Virus record (IMG/VR): IMGVR_UViG_3300029841_000117
Coordinates: 26,681 to 90,680 of that record
DNA length: 64,000 bases
DNA from: a virus
Lineage: Duplodnaviria; Heunggongvirae; Uroviricota; Caudoviricetes
Reading direction: 5' to 3' (one strand)
A model generated the notes under the pieces. That model was not told where the DNA came from. It did no database searches and worked only from the letters and a program-made list of their open reading frames with translations. The translations under genes were made by a program, and so were the position numbers. Numbering within the stretch: the first letter of the stretch is position 1; each line of letters starts with the position of its first letter. This document shows, piece by piece, positions 13,799 to 46,694 of this stretch.

Positions 13799-14749
13799 TT
13801 AGATTGAAAACGCCAGCTTCCAACGCTGATAATCTTCCATATAATTTTTTTCTATGCGGTTCTGCTTGTGCTCCAACTTGATTCTTCCGTTGAGCACATA
13901 AGTTCTGTCAGCGACAAAGTCTGTTGCTGCTTCTGAGAAATCGACCGGAATACCAGCTCGTTCTCTATCGTACATTCTGTAGAATAACCCTGACATCCAT
14001 ACTCTGTAGAAACTAAGTTGTTGCTGGGTGAGTCCATCTTCAATGGCTTTTGCTGATTTCTTAGATAAAATTGAACGAAGTGTCGCGGTCTTTTTTACTG
14101 CGCGAATACCACGCATCAAAGTATCGCCAGAAACTCTATCTCGTGTAATCGTTCGAGAGTAATTGGGATTCTTGTAGCAGAAGCTATTGAGTTCTGCTGC
14201 TTTATGGAACGCTGGCAGTGCTTCACGATAAAGCGGGACGTGCGTATCTTGATAGACAATTTCCATGTTGGCGAAGTCAATATCAGACGCTCTTACGAGA
14301 AGTGTATCATCTTCTTTGATGCCACCAAAAGCCATCCAATAATAACAACGGTAGGTGACATCGATTGTCTCTTCGCTCTCTTTGTCAAAGACCTCATCAA
14401 GAACACGTTGAAGATGGAGTGGGCTTGAGACCATCTGCCGCCTAACTTTTGCTAACCCCGCCGCCTCAATATTAAGCATCCCATCGCAAGCGTCTGGAAC
14501 CTTCATGGCAATACACCATTTTACATACTCTTTTAATATCGTGAGAGACATCCACTGGCTTCTGGAGCGCAGTGCAAGTATCTCATCGATAGCTGGCTGC
14601 AGTTCTTCTCTGTCTCTTGTACAGAGGTCTGCATTCCACGAAGTTTCATACGGTTCAAACGCTTCGAAAACTGTTGTGGCAACGTTAGCCGTGTTGATAC
14701 TCTTGGTATAGTCCTTAACGAATCTTGACTTTAACTCCGCATTGTACAT
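13799..14749 (-). CDS. Hypothetical protein, possibly a divergent tyrosine-recombinase/integrase-like protein
   Basis: RASDIDFANMEI ... THVPLYREALPAF loosely recalls the integrase catalytic-domain blocks (DIDL... TRTVPL). The HxxR and Y motifs are not convincing. Confidence 0.3.
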   Translation of the reverse strand: MYNAELKSRFVKDYTKSINTANVATTVFEAFEPYETSWNADLCTRDREELQPAIDEILALRSRSQWMSLTILKEYVKWCIAMKVPDACDGMLNIEAAGLAKVRRQMVSSPLHLQRVLDEVFDKESEETIDVTYRCYYWMAFGGIKEDDTLLVRASDIDFANMEIVYQDTHVPLYREALPAFHKAAELNSFCYKNPNYSRTITRDRVSGDTLMRGIRAVKKTATLRSILSKKSAKAIEDGLTQQQLSFYRVWMSGLFYRMYDRERAGIPVDFSEAATDFVADRTYVLNGRIKLEHKQNRIEKNYMEDYQRWKLAFSI

Positions 14750-14776
14750 AGCGAGCCTCCTACTTAGTATGTAGCA

Positions 14777-15214
14777 TTATGCTGGTACAACAGCGTTTAG
14801 GGCTGCGGCTTTCTTCCACACAGCAAGCAGCGCTTCGATGTCCAGATAGGCGATTGCACCCGTCGCCAGCAAGTTTGCTTCGGCAACTTGCTTCATGTGC
14901 TCCTCTGACAACGTAGTGATGTACTGCCCGAGGCGTTCTTTAGACATACGCTCTGGGTTTTCGCAAAGAACCATGCTGTCTCTGCGAAGCCCACTATCTG
15001 CTGCTTTGATGATAACGTGTGTAGGTTGGTTCGTCTTTTTGAGCGAACTGGTAAGTGGGAGTGCGATGATGTTGGGGCTGTATGCATTCCCCATGTTGTT
15101 CTGGAAGACGACGCCCGGACGCCAACCACTCTGTTCGCTGCCACTGCCACCGAACTTCATCAAATACACTTCACCAATCTGCGGAACCCGCTCTTTGTTA
15201 TTCTGAAAACCCAA
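14777..15214 (-). CDS. MazF/PemK-family toxin (mRNA interferase) with ~40-aa C-terminal extension
   Basis: ERVPQIGEVYLMKFGGSGSEQSGWRPGVVFQNNMGNAYSPNIIALPLTSS...THVII...SMVLCENPERMSKERL aligns across MazF (RYVPDMGDLIWVDFDPTKGSEQAGHRPAVVLSP...CLCVPCTTQ...). The track ORF starts at ATG 15283, but a TTGACT-18-TATACT promoter overlaps that ATG, so a TTG at 15214 with AAGGGG 9 nt upstream is the likelier start. Confidence 0.6.
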   Translation of the reverse strand: MGFQNNKERVPQIGEVYLMKFGGSGSEQSGWRPGVVFQNNMGNAYSPNIIALPLTSSLKKTNQPTHVIIKAADSGLRRDSMVLCENPERMSKERLGQYITTLSEEHMKQVAEANLLATGAIAYLDIEALLAVWKKAAALNAVVPA

Positions 15215-15253
15215 TATGCTAAACCCCTTAAATACAATTATGTTGATGTTTGG

Positions 15254-15283
15254 AGTATAGCACGTCCAATATGGCAGAGTCAA
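15254..15283 (-). promoter_or_regulatory. Sigma70-like promoter (-35 TTGACT, 18-nt spacer, -10 TATACT) for the MazF-like gene
   Basis: Read directly from the minus strand. Lies inside the long-ORF N-terminus, which supports the downstream TTG start. Confidence 0.45.
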
Positions 15284-15313
15284 GTCAATTATATAAACAA
15301 CATCAAAAAATAT

Positions 15314-15637
15314 TTAACCGGCTAACAAGGTGTAGGTGATTTCTTGTTCTTTGTCGTTTCTACCTCCACAAAAAACTGTGAAAACAGTTCCAATCACGGT
15401 CATTTCAGTGTCTATCTCGACACAACGTACTCGGTCAAAACATAAGGTATTTGCTCCAGATTTCAAGCAAATCATATTGGGGTTCTCGCATATCAACATA
15501 ACCGGGAATGATAACTTGAATTTGCATGGGTCTGAGACGCAATACCAACTCTGGTTCTCTGTGTAAAAGGAAATCTGCTGAGGCTTATGGTTTTCACAAT
15601 ACTCTTTAAGTTCCTTGACTGAGACTATCTTCTTCAT
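15314..15637 (-). CDS. Hypothetical Cys-rich protein; first gene of the leftward operon of the switch region
   Basis: ATG at 15637 preceded by GGAGG. No recognisable domain; not MazE/AbrB-like. Confidence 0.45.
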   Translation of the reverse strand: MKKIVSVKELKEYCENHKPQQISFYTENQSWYCVSDPCKFKLSFPVMLICENPNMICLKSGANTLCFDRVRCVEIDTEMTVIGTVFTVFCGGRNDKEQEITYTLLAG

Positions 15638-15656
15638 CCTGTAGTAAAAACCTCCA

Positions 15657-15685
15657 TTGATTTACGAGAAATCCCGTGTTATACT
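15657..15685 (+). promoter_or_regulatory. Sigma70-like promoter TTGATT-17-TATACT reading rightwards into a non-coding segment
   Basis: Near-consensus hexamers with a 17-nt spacer. Only a 6-codon ORF lies downstream. Confidence 0.5.
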
Positions 15686-15691
15686 ACAAGT

Positions 15692-15826
15692 GAGTCATTG
15701 CTGAGTGGTGTCAACGATGACTTCGACCTGTCGTTAACGGGTCGTTGCACGCTGTTATTACGTTGGTGTTCATGGCAGTGTGCGTTTTGTGGTAGCTCGT
15801 CTATATTGGCGAGCTACCTTTTTTAA
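15692..15826 (+). ncRNA. Candidate ~135-nt small RNA between the promoter at 15657 and the terminator at 15792
   Basis: Bounded by a strong promoter and an intrinsic terminator. No meaningful ORF. Confidence 0.35.
15792..15826 (+). terminator. Rho-independent terminator
   Basis: GTAGCTCG-tctatattgg-CGAGCTAC hairpin followed by CTTTTTT. Confidence 0.5.
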
Positions 15827-15829
15827 TTA

Positions 15830-15877
15830 TTGACAGAAACAGTTGTTTGTGTTAATCTGTCAATAGAAACAGTTGTT
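15830..15877 (+). promoter_or_regulatory. Repressor promoter (TTGACA-17-TAATCT) overlapped by two direct repeats AGAAACAGTTGTT (15835-15847, 15865-15877) as putative operators
   Basis: Read directly from the sequence. A third tgtcaac half-site occurs at 15908-15915. Confidence 0.5.
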
Positions 15878-15951
15878 GCGGTTTTATGCTACCACAAACA
15901 CAGTGGTCTGTCAACATCAAAACTTGGGCTATTTTTTTGGAGGACTTTAAC

Positions 15952-16755
15952 ATGGACTTCGGGCAGAGGCTAAAGAGCCTTCGTGCAGAACGGAACCTCA
16001 CACAGCAAAATCTTGGAGATGCAGTAGGTGTTTCCACGGTTACAATTCGCGCTTGGGAACGCAACGCTAAGAAACCCGCAATGGATGCGCTGCTTTCTCT
16101 CGGGCGGGCTCTCAATATATCGATAGACACGCTACTGGACTTCCATTTGGAGAACACACCAAACTACGCTTTGGTTCTCACTCCTGCCGAAAAAAAACTT
16201 TTGTCCAGCTATCAAGCTCTTGACAACTATGGCAAAAAAGCAGTTGACGCAATCTGTGTACTTGAGAAGGAAAGGGTCGATGCCGCTAAAACAATTCGTG
16301 TCATTCCAAAGGTCATAGATTTTCAGCAGGTCAACAGCGAGCGATTCATTCCACGCTATACTACTCCATCTGCTGCCGGTAGCTCTGTACCTCTCGACGG
16401 GGTTGACTTCGAGATGATTCTTGTTGATAGCTCCGTACCAGAGGAAGCAGACTACGCTGTTTATATCCAAGGTAACAGTATGTACCCATATATACATGAT
16501 GGTGATATGGTATATGTAAAAAAAGACGCAGAGCTTTCAGTTGGAGATGTTGGCATCTTCTGTGTCGATGGAGCAATGTATTGTAAGCAATACTATCTTG
16601 ATGATAATAACAATCTGGTTTTGGTTTCTGCAAACCCAGAGCTTCGCCATACAAACATCTTCGTCTCAGCCGACAGCGGACGTTCTGTAAAAGCCTGCGG
16701 TAAGGTGCTGCTGAAAGAAAAAATTGACCTTCCAGATTATTTGTTTGAGGATTGA
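15952..16755 (+). CDS. CI/LexA-like repressor: N-terminal XRE helix-turn-helix + C-terminal S24 peptidase domain
   Basis: HTH block QRLKSLRAERNLTQQNLGDAVGVSTVTIRAWERN. S24 motifs GNSMYP (Ser) and AMYCKQY (Lys). The real start is ATG 15952 with GGAGG 8 nt upstream (the track ORF begins at an upstream in-frame Met). Confidence 0.75.
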   Translation: MDFGQRLKSLRAERNLTQQNLGDAVGVSTVTIRAWERNAKKPAMDALLSLGRALNISIDTLLDFHLENTPNYALVLTPAEKKLLSSYQALDNYGKKAVDAICVLEKERVDAAKTIRVIPKVIDFQQVNSERFIPRYTTPSAAGSSVPLDGVDFEMILVDSSVPEEADYAVYIQGNSMYPYIHDGDMVYVKKDAELSVGDVGIFCVDGAMYCKQYYLDDNNNLVLVSANPELRHTNIFVSADSGRSVKACGKVLLKEKIDLPDYLFED

Positions 16756-18423: not shown

Positions 18424-19044
18424 TCAACCAAGGTTGCACACAATTTCAACCTCTCCAACTGCATTGTCGCCCAAGATATGTAGCAAAGAATTCGCAATCA
18501 TGTTGACATCAATTCTCCCGTTAAAGCACAATGAAAAGCGCTTCATATCCATACTCTGTTTGGAAGCTACTTCGTCCAACTTGGTAGCTGGTACATCTTC
18601 TACTTCTACTTCGGCATCCTCATCAGATGTTTTCCCATGCAGCAATTCATCCCACGCATCCTTTTGCGCTGTACTCATAGAGTGACCAACTGGGAACTTG
18701 ATATTCAGCTTGTTCATTTGGATATGCCGACGAATCGTAAGTGGTTGCACTCCGAACATGGCGGCAAAACTCGTTGCGTTAGCGCCATAGTTTTCCATCA
18801 TGTGTTTGAGATACTCTTCTTGCATTGAAGCCGTCAGTGCCTTGAAGTCATCCCATGTAATTGGCTGGTTCAAATTAACGGTCACAACTTTCCCATTCCT
18901 TTCCTTCCATTGTTTTTGCGTCATGTGGTCTGTTGACATTGAGCATTTCTTGCTCTTGCTTCCGCACTTGCGGTACTTTGCTTGCTGTGCAATACGTTTA
19001 CGCTGCCAGCAATCATACTCAAAATCAGACATCATTGCGCACAC
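18424..19044 (-). CDS. Hypothetical protein with possible C-terminal HTH (SFAAMFGVQPLTIRRHIQ)
   Basis: ORF in the minus-strand array. Cys-rich N-terminus. Confidence 0.4.
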   Translation of the reverse strand: MCAMMSDFEYDCWQRKRIAQQAKYRKCGSKSKKCSMSTDHMTQKQWKERNGKVVTVNLNQPITWDDFKALTASMQEEYLKHMMENYGANATSFAAMFGVQPLTIRRHIQMNKLNIKFPVGHSMSTAQKDAWDELLHGKTSDEDAEVEVEDVPATKLDEVASKQSMDMKRFSLCFNGRIDVNMIANSLLHILGDNAVGEVEIVCNLG

Positions 19045-19250
19045 CTCATTCTCTTCGAAACTTCGAACTTATCCTCAAGTTCTTTCGGTGTCCGTGCTTT
19101 TCCAAGCTTCTTAAACTCTCCGTCAACAAGCTCATACAGGAAATAAAACTCACGGCTCTCTTTACTGGTAAGAATAAAGCAGAGCTCATGCTCGGCATTA
19201 TAATATCCAACCCAGACTCTTTCACCTTTGGGGTATTTGGGTTCAGCCAA
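19032..19250 (-). CDS. Hypothetical small protein
   Basis: ORF overlapping its neighbours by a few nt (translational coupling). Confidence 0.3.
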   Translation of the reverse strand: MAEPKYPKGERVWVGYYNAEHELCFILTSKESREFYFLYELVDGEFKKLGKARTPKELEDKFEVSKRMRCAQ

Positions 19251-20589
19251 GAAGCTCCACCGCCCTCTGCATCAAAGCATTGTGTTCGTTTTCTAAAGCA
19301 CCCGAAATCACTTCATCTAAAAGGCTGTTAAGGATTTCGCCAACACGTTTCCCTTGTTCAATGCCGAGGTTCACAATATCTCTTCCGTTGATTTGCAAGT
19401 CTTTTAATGCGAAACACTGCTCCGCTTCTAAAACCTCAGACATAATGGAACCGAGTGCAATGCATCTTTCGATTCTGGACTCCTGTGTACCCTCTGCATG
19501 GGCAAGAATATCAGCCATCCGCACATCCAAAAACTGTGAGAACCGACGTTCACCGAGTTTATGCAGCCATTTGCGGACTGTGCGGGGTGTTGGCTCAATC
19601 ATAGTGTCGTGATAAAGCACGAGTTCAAGAACTTCCTGCTTTGTCTTATTATCGAACCGCAGTCTATCCAAAACTTGTTCTGCAATATCACGGCTTGGTA
19701 CCCCATGACCGTGGAAGTGCCCACCGTTTTCATCTTCAGTGTAGCATTGTGGCTTTCCGATGTCGTGGAGTAGTAAGGCTACCTTAACAGACACATCGGT
19801 ACCCTTGTAGTTCGCAACAGCGTGGGCAATATGCTCGTACACAGTGTATTGATGATACTTGTTGTTCTGTTCAAACCCAATGCAAGGCTCCATTTCTGGA
19901 ATAATCGTCGCAATAACATCTGAGAAATTCAGCAGCACATTTAAGATGCCGTCGCCGAGCAGCATTTTGCAAAGCTCGCCATTGATTCGCTCTGCAGCAA
20001 TACGTTTTAGCATCCAAGCATCCTTGTGGATGGCAGCGGCTGTCTGTTCTTCGATAGAAAAGCCATAGGTCGCTGCGAATCTCAGCGCTCGCAAAATGCG
20101 AAGCGCATCTTCTTCAAAACGCTCATCAGGATTGCCAACACAGCGAATAATCCCTGCTTGTAAATCATCTCTCCCGTGGAAGGGGTCAATCAATCCAGCA
20201 CTGTTGTACGCCATAGCGTTGATGGTGAAATCCCTGCGAGACAAGTCCTTATAAATGCTCTCGGTAAACTCCACATAATCAGGGTGCCTCCCGTCTGTAT
20301 AGTTTCCATCAATTCGAAACGTTGTGACCTCATACTTCCCAACAGTGCCCATGTCAACCGTTACTGTTCCATGCTGCAGCCCAGTATCAATTGTCTTTAT
20401 GCCACGACGATGCATTAGTTCCTTAACTTCGTCCGGTGTAGCAGAGGTACAGATATCCCAATCTTTTGGTTCTTTCCCAAGCAGACTGTCTCGGACACAT
20501 CCGCCAACCACATATGCCTCATGGTTTTCATATCGGAGATTCAGCAGAACTGCTCGCGCACCTTTAGGGATAGAAATCCTATGCATCAA
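19243..20589 (-). CDS. cca: tRNA nucleotidyltransferase (CCA-adding enzyme) with HD domain
   Basis: GGCVRDSLLG + DWD Pol-beta head motif of class II CCA enzymes. C-terminal HD motif LLLHDIGKP. Confidence 0.75.
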   Translation of the reverse strand: MMHRISIPKGARAVLLNLRYENHEAYVVGGCVRDSLLGKEPKDWDICTSATPDEVKELMHRRGIKTIDTGLQHGTVTVDMGTVGKYEVTTFRIDGNYTDGRHPDYVEFTESIYKDLSRRDFTINAMAYNSAGLIDPFHGRDDLQAGIIRCVGNPDERFEEDALRILRALRFAATYGFSIEEQTAAAIHKDAWMLKRIAAERINGELCKMLLGDGILNVLLNFSDVIATIIPEMEPCIGFEQNNKYHQYTVYEHIAHAVANYKGTDVSVKVALLLHDIGKPQCYTEDENGGHFHGHGVPSRDIAEQVLDRLRFDNKTKQEVLELVLYHDTMIEPTPRTVRKWLHKLGERRFSQFLDVRMADILAHAEGTQESRIERCIALGSIMSEVLEAEQCFALKDLQINGRDIVNLGIEQGKRVGEILNSLLDEVISGALENEHNALMQRAVELLG

Positions 20590-21601
20590 TCGCCCTCCTG
20601 TTTACACTCATAACGAACTCCTCAACTTTCTTCATATCCGGGTTATCTGGGAGGCTCGTGTTTTGCTTTGCATAATTGAGTCGTTTTTCAAAGTCAGAAA
20701 CCATTTCAAAAAACTCTGGTCTATATGTTCCATCTTCCAGTTGATAGTCACCCTTACGGATACTCATCAGCAGAGGCAGGTCATCACCACGATATGTGAC
20801 AATATCCTCTTTCTCCAGAATATCCAAGCAGAGAAGGTACAAGCGAATAAGATGCATCGCGTGTTTGTTCAAATGCTCATCGTCCTTCTTGTGGTTTCTG
20901 TGGTTGAGCTTCTCATACGTCCCGATAACATTCGTCAGGTCGTTGATTACACTATTGAACTCTCTGACCGGATACTTTTTAAGCTGGATATCTGCAAAAA
21001 TCTCACGGTCTAAATCCTCTCGCGGACTCTCATCTGTATAGAGAACAATGCTGCCGTTTTCAAAAATTGTGTATCGACTCTCAAATGATTTAACGGCGCC
21101 TTTCATAGAGTTGAGAATATGTTCCTCTCTTCTTGCCTGTGACAGCCTATCTCGCGCAAGAGCATTCTCCAAGCGCCGGAGCTGCTGATTCGCATAACCT
21201 CCAAAAGAATGAACTGCTCGTTTGGACAGAAACATTTTTCTGTTGGCAATCATTTCTCTGCCAATGTCTGAGATATAGAAATAGTGCTCTGGCTTACACC
21301 CAAGCATTTCAATCGTATTTGGATTACAATTTAGGAGCAGGCTCACCAGCTTATTAAAAGCATAGATTGTCGTATCCGTTTGTGTATTAACGACCTGCTC
21401 AAAGCTCGTCAGACCAAGCAAATCTGATTCGCTGTTCAACGCACACCCTCTTACATCAACATCGGATGTTTCGACGTTTGTTCCATAGGAATAGCTGCCA
21501 CCAAGCGTAAGAAAGATAATCTTGCTCCCGAGGTGCTCGTTTGTTCTAAGGAAATCATAAGCAGAACCGTTGACCATCTCTTTGATTTGCTCAATCGTCA
21601 T
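20579..21601 (-). CDS. Pol-beta-superfamily nucleotidyltransferase of unknown specificity
   Basis: GGSYSYGTNVETSDVDVRG fits the GS-x10-DxD minimal NTase signature. Long helical C-terminal region. Confidence 0.5.
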   Translation of the reverse strand: MTIEQIKEMVNGSAYDFLRTNEHLGSKIIFLTLGGSYSYGTNVETSDVDVRGCALNSESDLLGLTSFEQVVNTQTDTTIYAFNKLVSLLLNCNPNTIEMLGCKPEHYFYISDIGREMIANRKMFLSKRAVHSFGGYANQQLRRLENALARDRLSQARREEHILNSMKGAVKSFESRYTIFENGSIVLYTDESPREDLDREIFADIQLKKYPVREFNSVINDLTNVIGTYEKLNHRNHKKDDEHLNKHAMHLIRLYLLCLDILEKEDIVTYRGDDLPLLMSIRKGDYQLEDGTYRPEFFEMVSDFEKRLNYAKQNTSLPDNPDMKKVEEFVMSVNRRAIDA

Positions 21602-21605
21602 AACC

Positions 21606-22820
21606 TTACTCCTTTTCTTCTCTCGCCCTGAGTGCTGAAATGCACCCAGCTAAAATCTGTGCAGCTCTTACGGCTTCATCAGCCGTGTTTTTCTTTGAGA
21701 ACGAAATTCTGATGGAAGACCGCGCTTCATCTTTGGACAATCCCATTGCAGATAAAACGTGACTTGGTTCTGCTTCGTGACTCCTACACGCAGACCCGGC
21801 AGAAACACAAACTCCCTTGCCGTCCAACATAAGCAAGAGCGTTTCGCCATCGACGCCGTCCATTCTCAAGTTAATTGTCTTTCCGGGTGTAAGAATCGAC
21901 ATACCATTTACATGGACGCAGCTTTCATCACCCGTATCTTTAAGCGCTTCATTCAGCGCCATGAAAAATCGCTGTTTCAATGTTGAAACCCACACCGTAT
22001 CTTCGTGCAAACTCTTCGATGAAATCTCACAAGCCTTTCCGAATCCTACGATACCAGCAACATTTTCTGTTCCACCCCTCAGCCCGAACTCTTGCTCTGA
22101 ACCACCATATACAATGGGCGTAAGTTTGGACTTATCCTTTGCGTACAAAGCTCCAATGCCTTTACACCCATGAATCTTATGTGATGACACCGAAAGGAAA
22201 TCGCAACCGATTTTCACTACATCAATAGGATAGCATCCTGCAGCTTGCACGCAATCTGTGTGGAACAGAATCCCGCGCTTCATGCAAATCGTTCCAATAT
22301 CTTCGATTGGGTTGATTGCGCCTGTTTCATTGTTCGCAAACATCACAGATACGAGCCCCGTATCTGCCCGTAATGCGTCCTCAATGACAGCAGGAGAGAC
22401 CCTGCACTCACTGGATACCGGAATATACTCTACATGAAACCCGTCTTTTATAAGCGATTCTGCGGCTCGTAGGACGGAATCATGCTCAACAGCCGATACC
22501 AAAATGTGCGTCTTACCGATACTCTTCAGATAGTCCTTCAAACCCCGAAAGACTAAATTGTTTGCTTCGCTACCACCAGATGTAAAAATGATTTGCTCTG
22601 GTTCTGCGTTGATTAAAGCTGCCACTTGCGCTCTGGCTTTCTGCACAGCCTCATTCGCAGCTCGTCCAAACTTATAGAGGGTTCCTGCATTACCATACTC
22701 CGTTGTCAGGTATGGCATCATTGCTTCAAGAACCCGTTCATCCATTTGTGTGGTGGCAGCATTGTCAAGGTAAATCACAAGTGACCACTCCTTTTGTTTT
22801 ATATGATGCACTAATACCAC
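21606..22820 (-). CDS. iscS: Cysteine desulfurase (IscS/NifS class V aminotransferase)
   Basis: IYLDNAATTQ N-terminus, PLP-lysine block SVSSHKIHGCKG and a C-terminal active-site Cys loop. Confidence 0.8.
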   Translation of the reverse strand: MVLVHHIKQKEWSLVIYLDNAATTQMDERVLEAMMPYLTTEYGNAGTLYKFGRAANEAVQKARAQVAALINAEPEQIIFTSGGSEANNLVFRGLKDYLKSIGKTHILVSAVEHDSVLRAAESLIKDGFHVEYIPVSSECRVSPAVIEDALRADTGLVSVMFANNETGAINPIEDIGTICMKRGILFHTDCVQAAGCYPIDVVKIGCDFLSVSSHKIHGCKGIGALYAKDKSKLTPIVYGGSEQEFGLRGGTENVAGIVGFGKACEISSKSLHEDTVWVSTLKQRFFMALNEALKDTGDESCVHVNGMSILTPGKTINLRMDGVDGETLLLMLDGKGVCVSAGSACRSHEAEPSHVLSAMGLSKDEARSSIRISFSKKNTADEAVRAAQILAGCISALRAREEKE

Positions 22821-22866
22821 TCATCAAGCGCCTTTCAAAGCCTTGTGGCACAAGTGATTCAAGCCA

Positions 22867-23457
22867 TCATTTATTTCTAACAGCCTCGTTATGCGAATTT
22901 GCCGCAATGATTTCATCAAGCGTCCGAGGCGTGTAGTCCATCCACGGCATCATTGCTCCGACATTAAACATCTGGCAAGGTGTCGTGTACAGTTCCTCCA
23001 TCAGATACTTGTCATGCTCCATCATGTTCCACTCGAAAGAATTGTGGACGTGTCCATACAAGTGGAAGGAACCGTAAAAGTGATTCTTAAAGCACGGAAT
23101 TGGGTAATGGCAAAGAATCACTGTTCGACCGCTGTCCTTCACTTCGAGATACTCTGTGACCTTAACAAACTCCCGCAAGAACTTGTTGTCATTGCACCGG
23201 TCATGGTTCCCTTTAATCAGGAACTTCTGTCCTTTTAAGGAACGCAAAATAGGGATAGCATCTTGTGCCTTACACCAGAACATATCCCCAAGAACATACA
23301 CAATATCGCCCGGAGAAACCACTGCATTCCACCGGTCAACCAGTGCTTCGTCCATCTCCAGAAGCGATTTGAACGGACGGTTATCAAAGGCAATCACGTT
23401 TGCATGACCATAATGCCAATCTGAAATGTAGAACTGTTTATTGCTTTGTTCTTGCAT
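22867..23457 (-). CDS. Calcineurin-like metallophosphoesterase
   Basis: ISDWHYGH, GDMF, GNHD and a conserved His-rich C-terminus. Confidence 0.6.
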   Translation of the reverse strand: MQEQSNKQFYISDWHYGHANVIAFDNRPFKSLLEMDEALVDRWNAVVSPGDIVYVLGDMFWCKAQDAIPILRSLKGQKFLIKGNHDRCNDNKFLREFVKVTEYLEVKDSGRTVILCHYPIPCFKNHFYGSFHLYGHVHNSFEWNMMEHDKYLMEELYTTPCQMFNVGAMMPWMDYTPRTLDEIIAANSHNEAVRNK

Positions 23458-23740
23458 TTTTTAACTCCTCGATTCTGTCTGCCGCAAGAACGAGCAGCCA
23501 CTTTGGAACACGACTCTCATCTCCCATTCGTCCCGGTGCAAGCGTTGTTCCGTATTGACGGAGGAGAATGACCACTTCGTCATCCAGAATCTGCTTGGCT
23601 ACGTCGTGCAGGTTTCCGATTGCCTGTAATCTTTGCGGCTCGCGCGACTTTCTTTTAAGGTACTCCGGCTTGCTTGCTGGACATTCATAGCAAGAATACA
23701 TCTCATAAATACCACAGCCACCGTCTTTATAGCAACTCAT
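23438..23740 (-). CDS. Hypothetical Cys-containing small protein
   Basis: ORF in the array. Confidence 0.3.
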   Translation of the reverse strand: MSCYKDGGCGIYEMYSCYECPASKPEYLKRKSREPQRLQAIGNLHDVAKQILDDEVVILLRQYGTTLAPGRMGDESRVPKWLLVLAADRIEELKNARTKQ

Positions 23741-23751
23741 ATTTTTCCTCC

Positions 23752-24066
23752 TTAGAACGGAAGGCGTTCGTCTTGCTCAACACGAATAAGCTCCCGAACC
23801 CTTAGCAAAAACTCTTCCTCATCCAAAGCTTGGATGTCTTGGTATCGTAGATACTCAATCAATTCATGGACAGCCGTTGTCAGGGCTATATCGATTTTGT
23901 TTTCGATATCTGTCTGCTGGTTCAGGAACTCTTCTGTGTGCTGCCTGTTTCGTTCTATTGTGGTGACTAAATCTCCTCGTGTATTTTCGAGGCGGCATTC
24001 TAAACGTCCGAGTTTCTCATAGATATCGCAAATACAAGTAGCAACTTCAGCCGGTGTCATATCCAT
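23752..24066 (-). CDS. Hypothetical protein
   Basis: ORF in the array. Confidence 0.35.
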   Translation of the reverse strand: MDMTPAEVATCICDIYEKLGRLECRLENTRGDLVTTIERNRQHTEEFLNQQTDIENKIDIALTTAVHELIEYLRYQDIQALDEEEFLLRVRELIRVEQDERLPF

Positions 24067-24881
24067 TTTTCAACATACTCTCTTTCTTGCGAGAAAATGG
24101 GAGGCTCTCGGTCAATAACCCAACGGTTTCTGAAAACTTCAACCGTTTCAGTCTTATTGAGGATAGAGACGGTCTCTCTAACTCTTGTTTTGTAACAAGC
24201 CGAACCACGCTTACAGTCAACAGGGAAGTCATTCCAGTTGATACCGCAGTCCTTCCAGAGCATATCTTGAATAACGTTACAGCTTTTACCATGAAGCTCT
24301 TTCTGGCTAAAGTTTGCCTGCCCAACTGCCTCGATACTGTTGCGGGTTGCATCTTGCTGACGCCAAATCAGGCAGTTGCAAACTTCGTCTTTGGGAATAG
24401 AAAAAACTCTGGCATCAAACATGGCTGTACCCATCTTTGCGACCAGAGTTTCAATGTACTTATTTGTGCCATTGTTACTGTTGCGCATCGCTTCTGGGAA
24501 GTTTTTCCACAGCTCAGCAGTATAGGCATTTGAAAAAGCGAGCGTAGCCATTGAAGCGGAAACGCTGCACATCTTTTGGATGTTGTATCCGAACCATGCA
24601 TCCGTTGTGATTGTCGCATAGTCTGTAAGCACCAACGTGATTTCATCTGACTGCGTATATCCGAAGACACAGCCCTGAATGTTTTCACACAGGTACTTCA
24701 TTGTATTTTGCATCGTTGTCATCAAGATACGGTCAAATGGCTTTTCCATACCTCTTGTGAATGTATGAAACGCCTTGCCGTCCACTCTGATAATGGTTGG
24801 AATCCGACGAGTCAAATAGTTGCGAGCAATATTCTCGTAGCCTTTCATTCTGTCGCCGAGTGAATCATATTTCTTACTCAA
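24057..24881 (-). CDS. Thg1-like protein (tRNA-His guanylyltransferase family 3'-5' nucleotidyltransferase)
   Basis: TIIRVDGKAFHTF, GYTQSDEITLVL and the SVSASMATLAFSNAY block align with the human THG1 motifs VVVRLDGRNFHRF, AYGQSDEYSFVF and THVASQFASSY. Confidence 0.75.
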   Translation of the reverse strand: MSKKYDSLGDRMKGYENIARNYLTRRIPTIIRVDGKAFHTFTRGMEKPFDRILMTTMQNTMKYLCENIQGCVFGYTQSDEITLVLTDYATITTDAWFGYNIQKMCSVSASMATLAFSNAYTAELWKNFPEAMRNSNNGTNKYIETLVAKMGTAMFDARVFSIPKDEVCNCLIWRQQDATRNSIEAVGQANFSQKELHGKSCNVIQDMLWKDCGINWNDFPVDCKRGSACYKTRVRETVSILNKTETVEVFRNRWVIDREPPIFSQEREYVEKWI

Positions 24882-24924
24882 GTGGGTTCACCTCCAAAGT
24901 ATGTATGCAGGCTTGCACCTGCAA

Positions 24925-25425
24925 TTATGATGCGAAGTATCCAGACGGCATCTCAACAAATGGATATGCCGGAGTGGGAATCAGGCACAGACCAGTTTCT
25001 GTGCAAGCATTTGGTTGGTTCATGTCAGTTGCTTGTTTGAGGTCGAAGATGATGACGCCTTCATCTGCGAAGCGAACACCCGGCGCCTTTAACGGAACAT
25101 TCATCTCGACACCAATACCGGCTTTTACAAGCGCCGTCAGCGCACGATTTCCAACCGGAATCATTCTCTTCTTGGGCTTTCCGTCTTTCGTAGAATCCGA
25201 TGTAAAGAACTTCATCGCGTTCGGCGTTTCTTTGGCACAAGGCTGCAACGCAATCTGCGTTTTGTCTCTGCTGATAAACAGCCGCACAAACGGCGGATAG
25301 CCAATCTCGGAAGCTGTTGCAAGGTTAAAGGAGATGCGGTTCTTCAGGATTCGAACCTCTGCAATACTGAATGTACGAGGAACACCAACCACATCAAAGT
25401 TGTCTAAGATACTCATTGTTTCCAT
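24925..25425 (-). CDS. Hypothetical protein
   Basis: ORF in the array. Confidence 0.35.
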   Translation of the reverse strand: METMSILDNFDVVGVPRTFSIAEVRILKNRISFNLATASEIGYPPFVRLFISRDKTQIALQPCAKETPNAMKFFTSDSTKDGKPKKRMIPVGNRALTALVKAGIGVEMNVPLKAPGVRFADEGVIIFDLKQATDMNQPNACTETGLCLIPTPAYPFVEMPSGYFAS

Positions 25426-26476
25426 CCTTTCGAGGTTTAATTACAAAAAAGCCATCCAATATCCGAGGGACATCAGATGCAGACAAATCTGCCACCTCAT
25501 CAACTGATGGAACCGGAACGACATTTTCGCCCTTTAGAATCTGTTGCACCTCAAGCCAAAGTTCTCTCGGAATAATCGCTTCGTGATAGCCTTGGATAAA
25601 AAACTGGTTAGCACGTCCGTCGTTCCGAATAGAGCGATGCGAAAAGATATCCACGGTAACGGTCTTCTGCATCAAAACGTCACCGGAATATTTCTCATTT
25701 GTCAAGATTGTCTTTACCGTAGAGTATGTCCACTGACCACCTCGTGGGGATGGAATACCTTGCTGGTTTAAGATGTAGCAGATTTCAGGAATCGTTTTGT
25801 CATCGTAGAACATTTGATAAATCAGCCGCACAACATTCGCTTCAGGTTCGTAAATCTCCAGCAGCCTCTTATCTCTGGTGTACCCATAGAGGTCTGCGAG
25901 CTTTGGGAGCCCCTTCTCAAATCTTTTCTGGAACCCCCATTTCACGCTCTCAGACTTTGCTTCTGACTCGCCTTGCGCAATAGCAGCCATAACGACCATC
26001 AGAAGCTCGCCGGTCTGTGTCAAGGTATTGATTGCAATATCCTCAAAATAAACAGCAACCGGCTTGTCCAGTGCCTTGAGCATACGCACAGTGGCAACGC
26101 AGTCAACAACATTTCGTGCGAACCTTGCAATGTTCTTCACGATAATCATGTCGATTTTGCCTGCTTTACAATCATCAATCATCCGTAAGAAGTCCGTGCG
26201 TTTCTTTACGGAAGTCCCAGAAATCCCTTCATCGGCGTAGATGTCATAAAGCCGCCACCCCGGATGCTTCGACACATATTCTTTGTAATACTGGCACTGC
26301 AGCTCGTAGCTTGCGAGCTGGTCTTTGTTGTCCGTACTGACTCTGCAATACGGCGCGACCACCAATGGGTCTTCTTCGCTGTGCTCAGTAGTCTTTTTAA
26401 TCGAAGCGGGAATACACTGGACTTGTGCGCTATGCTCATAAGCATTGCGTATCTCATTTTGTTTATTTGTTTCCAA
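25394..26476 (-). CDS. Serine recombinase (resolvase/invertase catalytic domain + recombinase domain)
   Basis: Catalytic-serine block APYCRVSTDNKDQLASYELQ followed by a recombinase-domain-like region. No obvious C-terminal zinc ribbon. Confidence 0.7.
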   Translation of the reverse strand: METNKQNEIRNAYEHSAQVQCIPASIKKTTEHSEEDPLVVAPYCRVSTDNKDQLASYELQCQYYKEYVSKHPGWRLYDIYADEGISGTSVKKRTDFLRMIDDCKAGKIDMIIVKNIARFARNVVDCVATVRMLKALDKPVAVYFEDIAINTLTQTGELLMVVMAAIAQGESEAKSESVKWGFQKRFEKGLPKLADLYGYTRDKRLLEIYEPEANVVRLIYQMFYDDKTIPEICYILNQQGIPSPRGGQWTYSTVKTILTNEKYSGDVLMQKTVTVDIFSHRSIRNDGRANQFFIQGYHEAIIPRELWLEVQQILKGENVVPVPSVDEVADLSASDVPRILDGFFVIKPRKDGNNEYLRQL

Positions 26477-27337: not shown

Positions 27338-27886
27338 CTATAGATTTAGAGATTCCAAAAGCTCTCGTTGCGGCGAGAACTCTTTATACAATTCGACCTC
27401 CTTGGTCAGCCGAGCCAAGATTGCTTCTTCCTTGACCGCGTACCTGCCCAAGTAAACTTTCTTATGGTTATAAGTAATGCTGGCAACCCACTTCTTACGT
27501 TGTTTGTCGAAGTAGACGCCAGCGACACCAGACGTATTGCACGAATACAGGCTGCGGTTTCTGTCGTTCTCAGAACGCTCGCAACACCGCAAGTTTTTCT
27601 TCCTGTTATCCGCTTTGTTTTTGTTGATGTGGTCAACGCATTGACCGGGCTTTGCGTGCATCACAAGTCGATGGAACCGGACAAAGCGTCGAACGCCATT
27701 ATAAAAGTAGCTGCTGACAAGATAACCGTCCTTGTCACAGTACCAACTGTCGCGCCCCTTGATAAGGGGGAGGTCTTCCAAATCAAAAAGGAATTCGGTC
27801 GTCTTGATTCGCAGGATACCGTATGTATCGAGAAGTTCAATCCGCATTATGTTCTGTCCAATCCGGCTTGAAGGCGTGTAAAACAT
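27338..27886 (-). CDS. HNH homing endonuclease with AP2 DNA-binding domain
   Basis: HNH_3-like block CVDHINKNKADNRKKNLR and AP2-like block SGVAGVYFDKQRKKWVASITYNHKKVYLGRY. Confidence 0.6.
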   Translation of the reverse strand: MFYTPSSRIGQNIMRIELLDTYGILRIKTTEFLFDLEDLPLIKGRDSWYCDKDGYLVSSYFYNGVRRFVRFHRLVMHAKPGQCVDHINKNKADNRKKNLRCCERSENDRNRSLYSCNTSGVAGVYFDKQRKKWVASITYNHKKVYLGRYAVKEEAILARLTKEVELYKEFSPQRELLESLNL

Positions 27887-31219: not shown

Positions 31220-31633
31220 TCACATTTCTGCTCTGACCCGCATAAGGATTTTACCAAGGCGATTTTCTCCAACGCCATCACAGACGCCCCAGATGCGGTC
31301 GCCCCAAGTGTTGCCTTCAATGAGTTCGGCATCCTTGGTCGCAACAAGCTTGTCTGCCAAATCAGGATTCTGTGAGAACTTTGCCTTGCAAATCTCATAC
31401 ATAACGGTATCTTTGACCGCCTCCCAGTCACCACGGAGCTTAACCCTACGCCCAAGCCTCTTTGCCTCTGACGGATTCAGACGGCAAAACTCAGTCATAC
31501 GTTCTGGGCATTTAGCCGCTTGAAACGCCGCCTCGTTATTCTCAAAACACATTCCGTTGTAGGTAACTGGTGCCGAGTAGAAGTTACTCAGAAAATAATA
31601 CTCACCTCTAAACTCGCTGATACTTACTCCCAT
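31220..31633 (-). CDS. NADAR-domain protein (YbiA/DUF1768 family; NAD and ADP-ribose associated)
   Basis: FRGEYYFLSNFY ... ENNEAAFQAAK ... EGNTWGDRIWG matches the NADAR core. Confidence 0.6.
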   Translation of the reverse strand: MGVSISEFRGEYYFLSNFYSAPVTYNGMCFENNEAAFQAAKCPERMTEFCRLNPSEAKRLGRRVKLRGDWEAVKDTVMYEICKAKFSQNPDLADKLVATKDAELIEGNTWGDRIWGVCDGVGENRLGKILMRVRAEM

Positions 31634-34353: not shown

Positions 34354-34623
34354 TCAGTCCTTTTCTGCGAGAAGGAAGTCAGGGTTGATAACCTTGAAGC
34401 TGATGTTGCTTCGGACATTGCGCATAACTACACCTTCTCGTTTTTGTTCCTTACGAACCACTGATTTTCCCTTGGAATACTCGACCAGCTCAGCGATAGT
34501 TTCGGGCAGGGTTTTGTCCTCCTCAACAATCGGAACAGTCTTAATTCCATACGGCTCAAGCAGTTTCTTGATTTCTGCCGTGCCACACTTGTGGTCTGGA
34601 TAAATCAGGTTAAAGGCAAACAA
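34354..34623 (-). CDS. Hypothetical protein
   Basis: ORF in the array. Confidence 0.3.
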   Translation of the reverse strand: MFAFNLIYPDHKCGTAEIKKLLEPYGIKTVPIVEEDKTLPETIAELVEYSKGKSVVRKEQKREGVVMRNVRSNISFKVINPDFLLAEKD

Positions 34624-34721
34624 GTCGTACCCACTAATGTGGTACTTGTTGCCCTGAATCTGGTTGCCGCAAATCTCACCTTGTAAAACGATGGTTTTAA
34701 TAATTCAAAGGAGGGTGTCCT

Positions 34722-35489
34722 ATGCGACATTTGGCAACAATCCGTGAGATTGCATCTCTTCGCCCGATTGCAGGAGCTGACCGCATTGAAGTTGCGCAGG
34801 TCGATGGTTGGGAATGTGTGGTTCAGAAAGGCGAGTTCCATACAGGAGAGCATATCGTTTACATTGAGGTCGATTCTATCGTCCCAGAGCGCCCAGAGTT
34901 CGAGTTCTTGAGAGACAGAAAGTTCAGAGTTCGCACCATTAAGCTGCGTGGTCAGGTCAGTCAGGGTTTGGTTCTCCCGCTGTCCATTCTGCCGAATGGC
35001 GCTCCCGCCGATTTGGGTGCCGATGTGACCGATGTTTTGGGCATCAAGAAATATGACCCTGAAGCACAGCAGGAGGCGCAGCTCTTAACAAAGCAACCTC
35101 AGAAACCACAAAGTGCAATCGCTCATTTCTTGATGCGGTTTAAGTGGTATCGTAAGTTGTTTATGAAACCCAAACGCAAGGGTGGATTTCCTGATTGGAT
35201 TGTCAAGACGGATGAAACCCGCATTCAAAACCTTACGACGCTCTTTGAGATGGAGCGTAACAAGGGAACGAAGTTCTCTGTCACAGAGAAAGTTGATGGG
35301 CAGTCAGCGACGTATTACCTGCGCAAAATTTCCAAGCGCAAGTATGAGTTTGGTGTTTGCAGCCGTAATATCTATCTCGGAACGCCGGATAACAGTTCTT
35401 ACTGGACGATTGCTAAGAAGTACAATATCGAAAACGTACTGCGGCAGCTTATCGGTGATTATGAAACCATCGTTTTTAGCTTCTGCTGA
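34722..35489 (+). pseudogene. Truncated Rnl-type ATP-dependent RNA ligase (N-terminal OB module + motifs I and Ia only)
   Basis: Strong RBS AAAGGAGGG then ATG. MRHLATIREIASLRPIAGADRIEVAQVDGWECVV matches the N-terminal module of DraRnl/Rnl5-type ligases, followed by motif I TEKVDGQSATYY and motif Ia FGVCSRN. A stop follows immediately, so motifs III-V are absent and no downstream frame continues the gene. Confidence 0.5.
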
Positions 35490-38952: not shown

Positions 38953-39699
38953 TTACGGCTGTGAGCCGTAGGCTGGCATCGGATTGAGCTTGTGCAGGTT
39001 CTGCGTATGCTTCTTTGCAATTACTTTGTCGATGTCTTCATCCCCACTACTACCGTGCATGATGTAGTTGTCGAGCTGCATATAGGTAAAGCCCAGATTG
39101 TCTTCGTCTGTCTTACCGCAAAGACCGTCCGATGGAGTCTTGTCCACCAGCTCACGAGGAATGGGGAGTTCGTAGCCAATCTGACGAACCTCATGCACCA
39201 TGATATTTGCGAGTGGGCTGAAGTCACCAGCGCTGTCACCGAATTTTGTGGAGTATCCAACATAATCTTCAGAGCGATTGCAGGTGTTTGCCACCCGACC
39301 TCCGCGAGCCAAAGACTGCGCGACCATATAGAGCGTCGCCATACGCAGCCTTGGAGGGAGATTGACCGCTGCCTGATTGCTTACTCCAGATGGCATTGCT
39401 CTGCCGACTACATCAACCATCTTGCTGTATGCGCCGCCAATGTCAACTGTAATACTTGCAATGCCAAGCGTATCGACCAGCAGCTTGGAGTCTGCGATAT
39501 CTTTCTGCCGACCATTCGGCATCAGCACACCGATAACCCGCTCTGCGCCAAGGGCTTCAACACAAAGTGCTGCGACCACGCTGCTATCTTTGCCACCGGA
39601 AATGCCGATAACAGCACAGCAGTCGTTGCCGTTTGCAGCGAAATATTCTCGAATCCACTGCACGATTTCATCTTTTGTTCTTTTCGGATTTGCCAGCAT
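38953..39699 (-). CDS. nadE: NH3-dependent NAD+ synthetase
   Basis: PP-loop GISGGKDSSVVAALC, NLPPRLRMATLY, and TKFGDSAGDFSPL...DEDNLGFTYMQLDNYI, co-linear with E. coli NadE TKYGDGGTDINPL...DEVALGVTYDNIDDYL. Confidence 0.8.
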   Translation of the reverse strand: MLANPKRTKDEIVQWIREYFAANGNDCCAVIGISGGKDSSVVAALCVEALGAERVIGVLMPNGRQKDIADSKLLVDTLGIASITVDIGGAYSKMVDVVGRAMPSGVSNQAAVNLPPRLRMATLYMVAQSLARGGRVANTCNRSEDYVGYSTKFGDSAGDFSPLANIMVHEVRQIGYELPIPRELVDKTPSDGLCGKTDEDNLGFTYMQLDNYIMHGSSGDEDIDKVIAKKHTQNLHKLNPMPAYGSQP

Positions 39700-39700
39700 A

Positions 39701-40126
39701 CTATACCTCTTTTCTCCACAACTCTACTGTGTACTTATCGGACAGTTCCTTTTGGATAAGACCCAAAATCACATTCCAGTCCCCACCGCCAAGACCGCAT
39801 CCAATCTTAAACGGCATGGCAATTGTTTCTCCTGCAGGTATGGTCAACTTAATCCGTTTTAAGCAGCTCTGAAATGCGGTGTAATCTGTGTACAGTTTCC
39901 CATCATATCCGTAGTTGCTCTGCGCAAACATATTGACAACGACTTTACCGTCGTTAGCTTGAACGAACTGCGTCTGACCGAACGCATTGCGCTCTTCGTT
40001 GCAGAAGCCAACATAGGCGTTATAGACTTCTGGATACTTGGCTCGAACCTGTTTCGCCACACCACTACCCATTCTCGCCTGACAGTTAACCTGATGGCAA
40101 ATATATTTGGCGTGGGTCTGAAACAA
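39701..40126 (-). CDS. Macro-domain protein (ADP-ribose binding/hydrolase)
   Basis: ICHQVNCQARMGSGVAKQV and the GCGLGGGDW glycine-rich loop are typical of macro domains. Confidence 0.6.
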   Translation of the reverse strand: MFQTHAKYICHQVNCQARMGSGVAKQVRAKYPEVYNAYVGFCNEERNAFGQTQFVQANDGKVVVNMFAQSNYGYDGKLYTDYTAFQSCLKRIKLTIPAGETIAMPFKIGCGLGGGDWNVILGLIQKELSDKYTVELWRKEV

Positions 40127-40152
40127 ATCTCCATCAATAATTTGTACCGGTA

Positions 40153-41643: not shown

Positions 41644-41864
41644 TCAGTTTTTCCTCTTTTCTTTAGCTTTTCACCATATTTTTCAAAAAACACAGCAAAC
41701 GCAAACGGTGCTGCAACAATCCAGAAAACGCCTACCATAATATACCCGTCTTCGAACCCATTATATTTGTTATATGGTTCTACGATAACGTACAAGCGGC
41801 AAAGTGCGAATGTTACAATCGCACCAATGCAGAGGTACAGGAGCACCAAAAGGACTATCATCAT
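41640..41864 (-). CDS. Small membrane protein
   Basis: Two TM helices. Coupled between rtcB and the NAMPT-like gene. Confidence 0.35.
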   Translation of the reverse strand: MMIVLLVLLYLCIGAIVTFALCRLYVIVEPYNKYNGFEDGYIMVGVFWIVAAPFAFAVFFEKYGEKLKKRGKTE

Positions 41865-43066: not shown

Positions 43067-43085
43067 TTGCCCGCCTCCTTTAAGA

Positions 43086-46566: not shown

Positions 46567-46595
46567 ATATAATGGTTTTGTTTCCGAACACACAC

Positions 46596-46656: not shown

Positions 46657-46694
46657 GTGCCGGGGCAAAAAGGAAAACGGATATGTCAGTCCGT

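Follow-up and report, generated by a model that had tools for sequence, protein, structure and literature searches.

The genes at positions 24881 to 19243, on the minus strand of a 64,000-nucleotide stretch of a Caudoviricetes phage (the window; IMG/VR record IMGVR_UViG_3300029841_000117, positions 26,681 to 90,680), probably form a co-transcribed accessory module that would restore the ends of host and phage tRNAs damaged by ribonuclease-type defences. Its support comes from the families to which the proteins belong, from catalytic motifs that are intact and from the conserved coupling of the genes. RNA-end chemistry has been demonstrated for these families: a Thg1-like protein (TLP) for 5' repair, RlaP for 3' addition and a CCA-adding enzyme with an HD domain (CCA/HD), with RtcB and an Rnl5-type ligase for sealing. 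Within this model we infer the substrates, the order of the steps, the counter-defence role and the role of a metallophosphoesterase. An earlier note on the same DNA, made from its letters alone, had proposed a tRNA end-repair toolkit. The open reading frames (ORFs) it named were all recovered at the coordinates it gave, on the minus strand except for a ligase fragment. The metallophosphoesterase (22867-23457) and two small ORFs inside the cluster had been overlooked.

Enzymes of the cluster and their conservation

The module would comprise two sub-blocks, RlaP and CCA/HD for the 3' end and the TLP and phosphoesterase for the 5' end. The earlier note had recognised a Pol-beta nucleotidyltransferase at 20579-21601 (minus strand, 340 amino acids), left it unassigned and suggested profile searches for its family. 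The Pol-beta fold family stands, but the gene can now be assigned, since it is RlaP by both PF10127 (64.8 bits against a cutoff of 23) and phrog_388. The PF10127 match spans only the N-terminal half, and that to phrog_388 (2e-52) the full length. The Pol-beta motifs GGSYSYG34 and D47xD49 are present. No PDB sequence match was found at E <= 1, the PfRlaP structure possibly being absent from the copy searched. The gene has no adjacent RNA ligase gene, the nearest Rnl5 gene lying ~13 kb and RtcB ~20 kb away, and its neighbour is the CCA enzyme. The RlaP family takes its name from gene adjacency to an RNA ligase, and in relatives L078 and L064 (L numbers denote loci compared with the window) RlaP lies nearer to an Rnl5 gene. 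Members of the family add 1-2 nucleotides to an RNA 3'-OH and prefer mimics of damaged tRNA, and over-trimmed tRNA regains aminoacylation (PMC12776372).

The RlaP stop is overlapped by 11 nucleotides by the start of a gene (19243-20589, minus strand) for a class II CCA-adding enzyme that has an HD (HDIG) phosphohydrolase domain at its C terminus. The earlier note had called this gene correctly. Its product matches the PolyA_pol head (6e-38), tRNA_NucTran2_2 and HD (PF01966, 7e-10), and scores 285 bits on the NCBIfam equivalog PRK13299, just below the cutoff of 290. The motifs of the head (GGCVRD29, D43xD45, RRDFT118 and EDALR160) and of the HD domain (HDIGK275 and YHD326) are intact, and the flexible-loop region aligns gap-free to the CCA enzyme 6ibp. 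The closest enzymes are those of Planococcus and Geobacillus, which lack the HDIG phosphohydrolase domain. Among other models, A-adding scored 64 bits and PcnB fell below its cutoff. For this product the sequence favours full CCA addition over CC-only, A-only or poly(A) addition.

In the other sub-block, 24057-24881 (minus strand) encodes a protein of 274 amino acids from the 3'-5' nucleotidyltransferase family, as the earlier note had recognised (PF04446, 4e-29, 101.6 bits against a cutoff of 29.2; phrog_4717, 3e-91). Its best PDB match, nearly full length, is the Bacillus thuringiensis TLP (BtTLP; 4kgk, 1.6e-61), whereas eukaryotic and archaeal Thg1 in the PDB match at 1.8e-8 or weaker. The metal carboxylates D34, D79 and E80 are present in alignment to the BtTLP palm domain, and ~30 amino acids are inserted at 120-151 relative to BtTLP. 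We assign the product by these comparisons to the bacterial-type TLPs and not to eukaryotic Thg1. Thg1-like proteins had been called rare in phages, but one pattern scan found 87 such IMG/VR stretches and a PHROG family exists. Templated 3'-5' addition by bacterial TLPs repairs 5'-truncated tRNAs (PMC3061083). As a separate observation, the TLP gene of L005-L022 falls into two allele classes of ~99% and ~92% protein identity in relatives otherwise 97-100% identical, which points to recombinational replacement of the TLP gene alone.

The gene at 22867-23457 (minus strand) encodes a calcineurin-type binuclear metallophosphoesterase of 196 amino acids, similar to aq_1665 (Metallophos, 3e-6; phrog_547, 1e-44; PDB 1xm7, 2e-11). 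Its motifs D13xH15, G57D58, GNHD83-86, H117 and GH136xH138 are invariant in 32 homologues. Foldseek with an AF2 model (pLDDT 82) returned 1xm7 at the top and then LpxH pyrophosphatases; the best matches overall are aq_1665, of unknown function, followed by LpxH, MJ0936, Vps29 and Mre11. A second metallophosphoesterase of 232 amino acids (47845-48543, minus strand; Metallophos, 5e-14) lies immediately upstream of the tRNA array and gave no PDB sequence match. Its homologue occurs in a run MPE2-GP88-Thg1 in the diverged relatives L101 (672-1433) and L031.

On the minus strand, the order from 5' to 3' is serine recombinase, 166-amino-acid ORF, Thg1-like gene, 104-amino-acid ORF, 100-amino-acid ORF, metallophosphoesterase, cysteine desulfurase, RlaP, CCA/HD and 72-amino-acid ORF. 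From the TLP to the CCA gene, neighbours overlap by 10-20 nucleotides or are separated by at most 46, and no terminator-like site was found on this strand between the two. The serine recombinase (25394-26476, minus strand, 360 amino acids, Resolvase and Recombinase domains) is directly upstream of the cluster, with the 166-amino-acid ORF, also on the minus strand, between it and the Thg1-like gene. The remaining small ORFs, all on the minus strand, have no family. That of 104 amino acids (23752-24066) overlaps the TLP stop by 10 nucleotides and is conserved in close relatives only. The Cys-rich ORF of 100 amino acids (23438-23740) overlaps the phosphoesterase start by 20 nucleotides, and a 75% identical homologue lies between Thg1 and phosphoesterase in L141-143. 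The ORF of 72 amino acids (19032-19250) lies 3' of the CCA gene.

No relative of the cluster was found by megablast against 50,697 GenBank phage records. In IMG/VR there are ~30 contigs of 50-133 kb that are nearly identical, besides many diverged relatives, and public metagenomes contain more than 8,000 homologues each of the window RlaP and the window TLP. Genome matches and homologues point to gut Clostridia as hosts of a phage of roughly 80-130 kb. The cluster is more than a chance juxtaposition, because its arrangement is found again in many related contigs, in which the two sub-blocks (RlaP-CCA and Thg1-phosphoesterase-desulfurase) persist while the intervening DNA varies. The RlaP and CCA ORFs overlap by 8-11 nucleotides in the window, L101, the sister lineages L135-138 and L141-143, L129 and L132. 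Amino-acid identities of RlaP and CCA enzyme to the window are 68/60% in L101 (a relative 55-68% identical to the window), 67/53% in L129 (a Clostridia metagenome-assembled genome) and 59/38% in L132 (an Anaerophilus nitritogenes genome). At two other bacterial RlaP loci the CCA gene is absent. The order Thg1-(small ORF)-phosphoesterase-desulfurase is kept in L135-138 and L141-143, and L101 has Thg1 ... RlaP-CCA-phosphoesterase-desulfurase; in all of these, as in the window, the phosphoesterase adjoins the desulfurase. L078, an unrelated phage, has a Thg1 gene whose start is overlapped by the stop of a phosphoesterase gene, and Rnl5, RlaP and GP88 are close by. In the jumbo contig L068, a span of 6 kb includes Rnl5, Thg1, a phosphoesterase-like gene and a CCA head domain.

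Neighbours were then counted within 10 kb of Thg1 at 48 diverged Thg1-bearing viral loci. An Rnl5 ligase was present at 12 loci, RlaP at seven, a phosphoesterase like that at 47845-48543 (type 2) at seven and one like that at 22867-23457 (type 1) at six, the CCA gene at two, RtcB at two and a cysteine desulfurase at none. These counts indicate that the RNA-end enzymes are linked beyond shared ancestry.

It is rather unlikely that the region serves no single pathway and is instead a hypervariable island of independent auxiliary genes (an RNA nucleotidyltransferase pair, the TLP, the phosphoesterase and a desulfurase for Fe-S assembly), made adjacent by insertion hot-spots and shared ancestry. 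Such an island would fit the variable inserts between the sub-blocks in relatives (HNH-AP2, NADAR, PTH2, CxxCxxCC, methyltransferase and DUF1848) and the retention of phosphoesterase and desulfurase in L100 and L139/140 without a local Thg1, RlaP or CCA gene. It would also fit the desulfurase, never near Thg1 outside this phage family, and the occurrence of deletion-fusion variants. Independent genes would not, however, be expected to keep the RlaP-CCA stop/start overlap down to 38% CCA identity or to show the phosphoesterase-Thg1 overlap again in the unrelated L078, and all partners act on RNA termini.

The deletion-fusion proteins (P0344 and P0243) come from relatives in public assemblies. 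In one variant, residues 1-132 of the serine recombinase are in frame with residues 60-196 of the phosphoesterase and the TLP and small ORFs are gone; in the other, the 104-amino-acid ORF is joined to the phosphoesterase. Either true microhomology deletions or chimeric assembly would account for them. The window has an HNH-AP2 homing-endonuclease-like gene at 27338-27886 (minus strand). In the sister lineages L135-137 its homologues separate the two repair sub-blocks, a placement consistent with a region of frequent gene flux.

Proposed repair of tRNA ends and its alternatives

In the proposed repair of a 3' end, the HD domain or the phosphoesterase would, if needed, strip a 2',3'-cyclic phosphate or 3'-phosphate. 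RlaP would then restore one or two nucleotides, for example the discriminator N73, on the 3'-OH, and the CCA enzyme would complete CCA. At the 5' end, the TLP would fill in missing acceptor-stem nucleotides with the 3' strand as template, whilst the phosphoesterase might prepare or finish the end, for example by trimming or by conversion of a triphosphate to a monophosphate (ppp -> p). Of breaks elsewhere in the tRNA, RtcB would seal those with 3'-P/5'-OH ends and the Rnl5-type ligase, a nick-sealing enzyme, those with 3'-OH/5'-P ends. Inversion of the 5' 792 base pairs of its gene would turn this second ligase off and on.

Cleavage of tRNA is an emerging major arm of bacterial immunity. Cas12a3 cuts tRNA tails 2-4 nucleotides from the 3' end, discriminator included (PMC12851939), and the cleavage site given in the literature for LbaCas13a is A|CCA. 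A CCA enzyme alone cannot restore a lost discriminator; the RlaP-CCA pair could. Removal of the universal 3' tail is not evaded by phage-encoded variant tRNAs, and the discoverers of Cas12a3 tail cleavage state that viral resistance to it is unknown (PMC12851939). The widespread RlaP-CCA/HD phage operon is thus a testable candidate answer to tRNA-tail cleavage. The TLP-phosphoesterase pairing could give bacterial Thg1-like proteins a physiological role, which has hitherto been unclear.

The phage tRNAs themselves bear on the function of the module. ARAGORN and Rfam identified 13 tRNA genes and one tRNA-like gene at 46491-58291 (minus strand), where the earlier note had counted 12 tRNAs. All 13 have CCA encoded in the genome, and in each the first base pair is paired; no tRNA-His was found in the window or in the arrays of its relatives. 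Repair is favoured over maturation because all 13 tRNAs encode CCA and tRNA-His is absent. The first of these facts led us to reject maturation of the phage tRNAs by the CCA enzyme, and the second to reject addition of G-1 to a phage tRNA-His by the TLP.

A broader housekeeping role would be to serve the phage's own translation by maturing and quality-controlling the 13-14 phage tRNAs and boosting host tRNA turnover, for example by re-adding CCA lost to exonucleases or by mending 5' ends mis-cut in the packed array. The array is large, it includes abutting tRNA-Ser and tRNA-Trp genes with zero spacer and a tRNA-like gene without CCA, and the second phosphoesterase is directly upstream of it, all of which speak for this role. 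We nevertheless judge it unlikely: with CCA encoded and 5' ends paired in 13/13 tRNAs no CCA addition or 5' editing is needed, more than 20 kb separate the cluster from the array, and phages repeatedly carry these families together with RNA ligases, a sign of damage repair.

Two features of the array deserve description. The tRNA-like gene (46815-46883, minus strand; Rfam tRNA, 54.8 bits) was missed by ARAGORN. It has normal acceptor, D and T arms and an anticodon arm with a stem of 4 base pairs and a loop of 5 nucleotides, and CCA is not encoded. A 23-mer across the odd arm is exact in 11 IMG/VR relatives, and the gene could be a pseudogene or specify a decoy or regulatory tRNA-like RNA. In the abutting pair tRNA-Ser(GCU) and tRNA-Trp (47689-47854, minus strand), the A of the encoded CCA of tRNA-Ser is followed directly by nucleotide +1 of tRNA-Trp, so that one RNase P cut would yield the mature ends of both tRNAs.

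Several points weigh against tRNA-end repair. RlaP has little NTP specificity (PMC12776372), so faithful restoration of N73 would be inefficient. A scan for P-loop motifs found DnaB as the only P-loop protein of the window and no polynucleotide kinase, so the TLP and Rnl5 cannot act on 5'-OH ends, which are the product of most ribotoxins. RtcB is encoded 17 kb, and the ligase 10 kb, away from the cluster. Searches of the PDB and Foldseek found no likeness between the phosphoesterase and known RNA end-healing domains (2',3'-cyclic phosphodiesterase and 3'-phosphatase). About half of the 48 diverged Thg1 loci have no RNA-repair neighbour. Finally, neighbourhood conservation lies mostly within one phage family and may partly be inherited synteny, not selection. 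Of the end-repair reading in the earlier note, the families, motifs, packing and encoded CCA thus hold up, whilst its self-contained character does not, given the missing kinase. Its suggestion of tRNA thiolation also fails, as set out below.

The cysteine desulfurase (21606-22820, minus strand; Aminotran_5, 3e-80, 270 bits) belongs to group I (IscS/NifS-like), in agreement with the IscS-type call made earlier. Its pyridoxal phosphate lysine K215 (in SSHK212-215) and catalytic C345 (in GSAC342-345) are present, and its NCBIfam scores (NifS 405 bits, DndA 362 and IscS 341) are all below cutoffs. The search for sulfur partners covered ~70 window ORFs, which were compared with Pfam, NCBIfam and PHROGs, and used as tblastn queries the PAPS-reductase, GP88, PTH2 and CxxCxxCC proteins that relatives encode. 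No homologue of ThiI, MnmA, TtcA, IscU, DndC/D/E or PAPS-reductase was found among the window ORFs scanned. As these ORFs offer no thiolase, sulfur-transfer partner or sulfur acceptor, and no desulfurase was near Thg1 at the 48 diverged loci, tRNA thiolation was rejected as unsupported. Linkage of the desulfurase to the module is a peculiarity of this phage family. In L139/140 the gene immediately before it is a PP-loop gene of PAPS-reductase type, accompanied by DUF1848, and in L100-L102 the desulfurase is directly followed by a homologue of the 72-amino-acid ORF of the window. The window encodes possible Fe-S clients, a DUF1848 protein and a radical SAM protein, and several Cys-rich proteins accompany the module in relatives. 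The desulfurase more probably provides sulfur to Fe-S or Cys-rich proteins of the phage, or for thiolation by the PP-loop enzyme of relatives, than contributes to end repair.

A joint role of desulfurase, phosphoesterase and TLP in sulfur-dependent modification of nucleic acids, either tRNA thiolation or DNA phosphorothioation, is very improbable. The match to DndA is strong, though below cutoff, and the PP-loop gene of L139/140 would be a fitting partner; however, the window ORFs hold no PAPS-reductase, DndC/D/E, ThiI, MnmA or TtcA homologue. Adjacency of phosphoesterase and desulfurase is conserved, as such a role would predict, but the window has Fe-S and Cys-rich candidate clients instead, and its ThiF-like gene (51499-52176) exceeds the cutoff of no specific sulfur-transfer family. 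This gene (minus strand) encodes a ThiF/E1-like adenylyltransferase of 225 amino acids and is followed by two large ORFs without a family. Its matches are all sub-threshold (ThiF, Cap2-like, MoeB and TcdA), and no link to the desulfurase could be shown.

Ligase genes, an invertible segment and other features

The earlier note had described a truncated Rnl-type ligase at 34722-35489 (plus strand). The position and ligase type hold, but the gene is split by an inversion rather than truncated. This 5' part has a ribosome-binding site, the OB domain and motif I (K190VDG), runs out of register after residue 251 and contains by profile only the PHA02142 OB domain and the first third of the RNA_ligase domain. 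The 3' remnant, of ~110 codons, lies on the minus strand at 34354-34684 and is weakly annotated as RNA_ligase in the identical contig L155. In relatives the intact Rnl5 ligase has 361 amino acids (L026:1282-2367), with N-terminal OB and nucleotidyltransferase domains, and scores 163.8 bits on TIGR02306 (cutoff 151) and 4e-52 against NgrRnl (5cot). With its gene split, the window has no full-length OB and nucleotidyltransferase product above the TIGR02306 cutoff. The interpretation of the ligase as a decayed fragment was rejected, since the gene is split by a 792-base-pair inversion.

The segment (34685-35476), inverted with respect to all the relatives that encode the full-length ligase, is bounded by perfect inverted repeats of 13 base pairs, AAAACGATGGTTT on the left (34685-34697) and AAACCATCGTTTT on the right (35464-35476). 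It carries the ribosome-binding site and first 251 codons of the ligase, including K190 of motif I. The window has no further copy of the repeat; of these two, one lies between genes and one within coding sequence. The junctions are exact reciprocal exchanges within the 13-base-pair core.

In IMG/VR, 18 contigs have the intact junction and none has that of the window. The metagenome contig OIWK01006262.1 has the window orientation and is 7% diverged. The segment exists as two alleles, ~89% identical, each seen in both orientations: allele A is OFF in the window and ON in L126 and L009, and allele B is OFF in L127 and ON in L118 (98.9% identity). The OFF orientation counts as two independent genomes, L155 being excluded as 100% identical to the window. 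L155 (ENA ERZ827488 NODE_1196, 33,130 base pairs) is identical over the 8,630 base pairs fetched and begins at window position 30860; it is the same strain, assembled elsewhere as a shorter contig. Because each of the two alleles occurs in both orientations, the inversion is recurrent and happened at least twice at identical breakpoints. An assembly artefact was rejected as its source, as the repeat is only 13 base pairs, shorter than typical assembler k-mers, and the same breakpoints occur in the independent 7%-diverged contig.

Such recurrence agrees with a site-specific switch, probably a reversible one. Candidate invertases are the serine recombinase at 25394-26476 and the tyrosine-recombinase-like gene at 13799-14749. 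The core of the repeat may resemble the centre of hix sites. With an Rnl5 gene repeatedly broken by inversion, the phage would offer an unusual case of a repair enzyme that varies between on and off.

Taken together, a more specific scheme can be put forward tentatively. RlaP-CCA/HD might act as a two-step rebuild of discriminator and CCA that counters tail-cleaving immunity (Cas12a3, some Cas13 and HEPN), with TLP-phosphoesterase as its 5' counterpart, and inversion of Rnl5 might be a reversible, phase-variable form of counter-defence. We regard these two linked readings as possible rather than probable.

RtcB, a 3'-phosphate/5'-OH RNA ligase, had been identified correctly at 41861-43066 (minus strand; PF01139, 2e-65; PDB RtcB matches at ~1e-16). 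It is embedded in a run of NAD-salvage and ADP-ribose genes (38953-44455, minus strand). The order is an isochorismatase/nicotinamidase-like gene, a PRPP-synthetase-like gene, RtcB, a 74-amino-acid ORF, nicotinate phosphoribosyltransferase (above its NCBIfam cutoff), a Macro domain and the NAD synthetase NadE (38953-39699, minus strand, SGGKDS motif). A NADAR protein is encoded at 31220-31633. Homologous NAD genes lie near Thg1 in the diverged phages L039, L044 and L051-54.

The window as a whole consists of co-directional minus-strand phage genes, with a GC content of ~45% and negative GC skew throughout. Backbone genes encode a DnaE-type Pol III alpha, primase, DnaB and a PD-(D/E)XK nuclease, and the window also encodes a tyrosine-recombinase-like protein, a MazF-like toxin and a CI-like repressor. 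These last three form, with a 107-amino-acid ORF, a conserved backbone block at 13799-16755: the tyrosine-recombinase-like protein (13799-14749) has an MrpR N-domain, the toxin (14777-15283) is a MazF/PemK-like endoribonuclease, and the repressor, divergently oriented on the plus strand, has HTH and S24 peptidase domains. The presence of a phage-borne MazF alongside RtcB in one window is of note because RtcB-type ligases can reseal MazF-type cuts.

Three RAGATH-class structured RNAs at 60957-63771 (minus strand) score well above gathering thresholds: RAGATH-36 (60957-61113), RAGATH-4 (63394-63524) and RAGATH-16 (63700-63771), all on the minus strand. A reverse transcriptase (RVT_1, 378 amino acids) adjoins a DUF6273 protein at 49146-51467 (minus strand), and the pair may be a diversity-generating retroelement.

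Comparison with known systems

The cluster is at present a well-annotated example of a predicted class. RlaP was reportedly first named by Burroughs and Aravind in 2016. Comparative genomics of jumbo phages (Iyer, Anantharaman, Krishnan, Burroughs and Aravind 2021) lists RlaP, CCA, Thg1, ligases and PTH2 as RNA repair (PMC7824862). The window shares with these repertoires RlaP, the CCA enzyme, Thg1, RNA ligases and RtcB, and its relatives share PTH2. The contigs here are, however, ~50-133 kb and not jumbo, and have a CI-like repressor. Moreover, the partner to which RlaP is translationally coupled is the CCA enzyme instead of a ligase, a metallophosphoesterase and a cysteine desulfurase are coupled to the TLP, and the ligase gene is invertible.

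In the RtcB-RlaP-RtcA operons of Pseudomonas (Carruthers, Fatma and Huang 2025 preprint, PMC12776372), RlaP has the same family (PF10127) and Pol-beta motifs, and is likewise proposed to restore nucleotides lost from damaged tRNA before repair is completed. It lies there between RtcB and RtcA and its action is modelled on anticodon-loop damage, whereas the window RlaP overlaps CCA/HD and RtcB is 20 kb away. The latter arrangement suggests that the enzyme acts at the 3' terminus of the tRNA. Placement with the CCA enzyme also avoids the incompatibility between 3'-OH ends and RtcB noted for Pseudomonas (PMC12776372).

The window TLP resembles BtTLP over nearly its full length (4kgk, 1.6e-61), with the catalytic carboxylates conserved. 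It differs in being phage-encoded, in the ~30 residues inserted at 120-151 and in its coupling to a phosphoesterase.

In phage T4, Pnkp and Rnl1 repair tRNA-Lys cleaved by PrrC. The predicted function of the window module is likewise a phage-encoded heal-and-seal response to a host tRNA nuclease. The window, however, has no Pnkp, Rnl1 or any kinase, and sealing would fall to RtcB or Rnl5. The T4 pathway, in turn, lacks the end-rebuilding polymerases that the window system adds.

The intact ligase gene of relatives scores above the family cutoff and has the same domains as known Rnl5 ligases (NgrRnl, 5cot; Deinococcus DraRnl; TIGR02306), but in the window it is split by inversion of its first 251 codons. 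Site-specific inversion switches include the Hin, Gin and Cin segments and, in gut bacteria, intragenic invertons. Like them, the ligase segment has short inverted repeats and exact reciprocal junctions and occurs in nature in both orientations. The window repeats are, however, only 13 base pairs and no invertase gene adjoins the segment. One repeat lies inside coding sequence, so that what inversion does is to split an enzyme gene instead of turning a promoter round. As a class, phage sets for RNA repair that combine RlaP, CCA, Thg1 and ligases are already known and the general idea is not new. The features that set the window apart are the coupling of RlaP to the CCA enzyme, the pairing of TLP with a phosphoesterase, the family-specific desulfurase and the invertible ligase gene.

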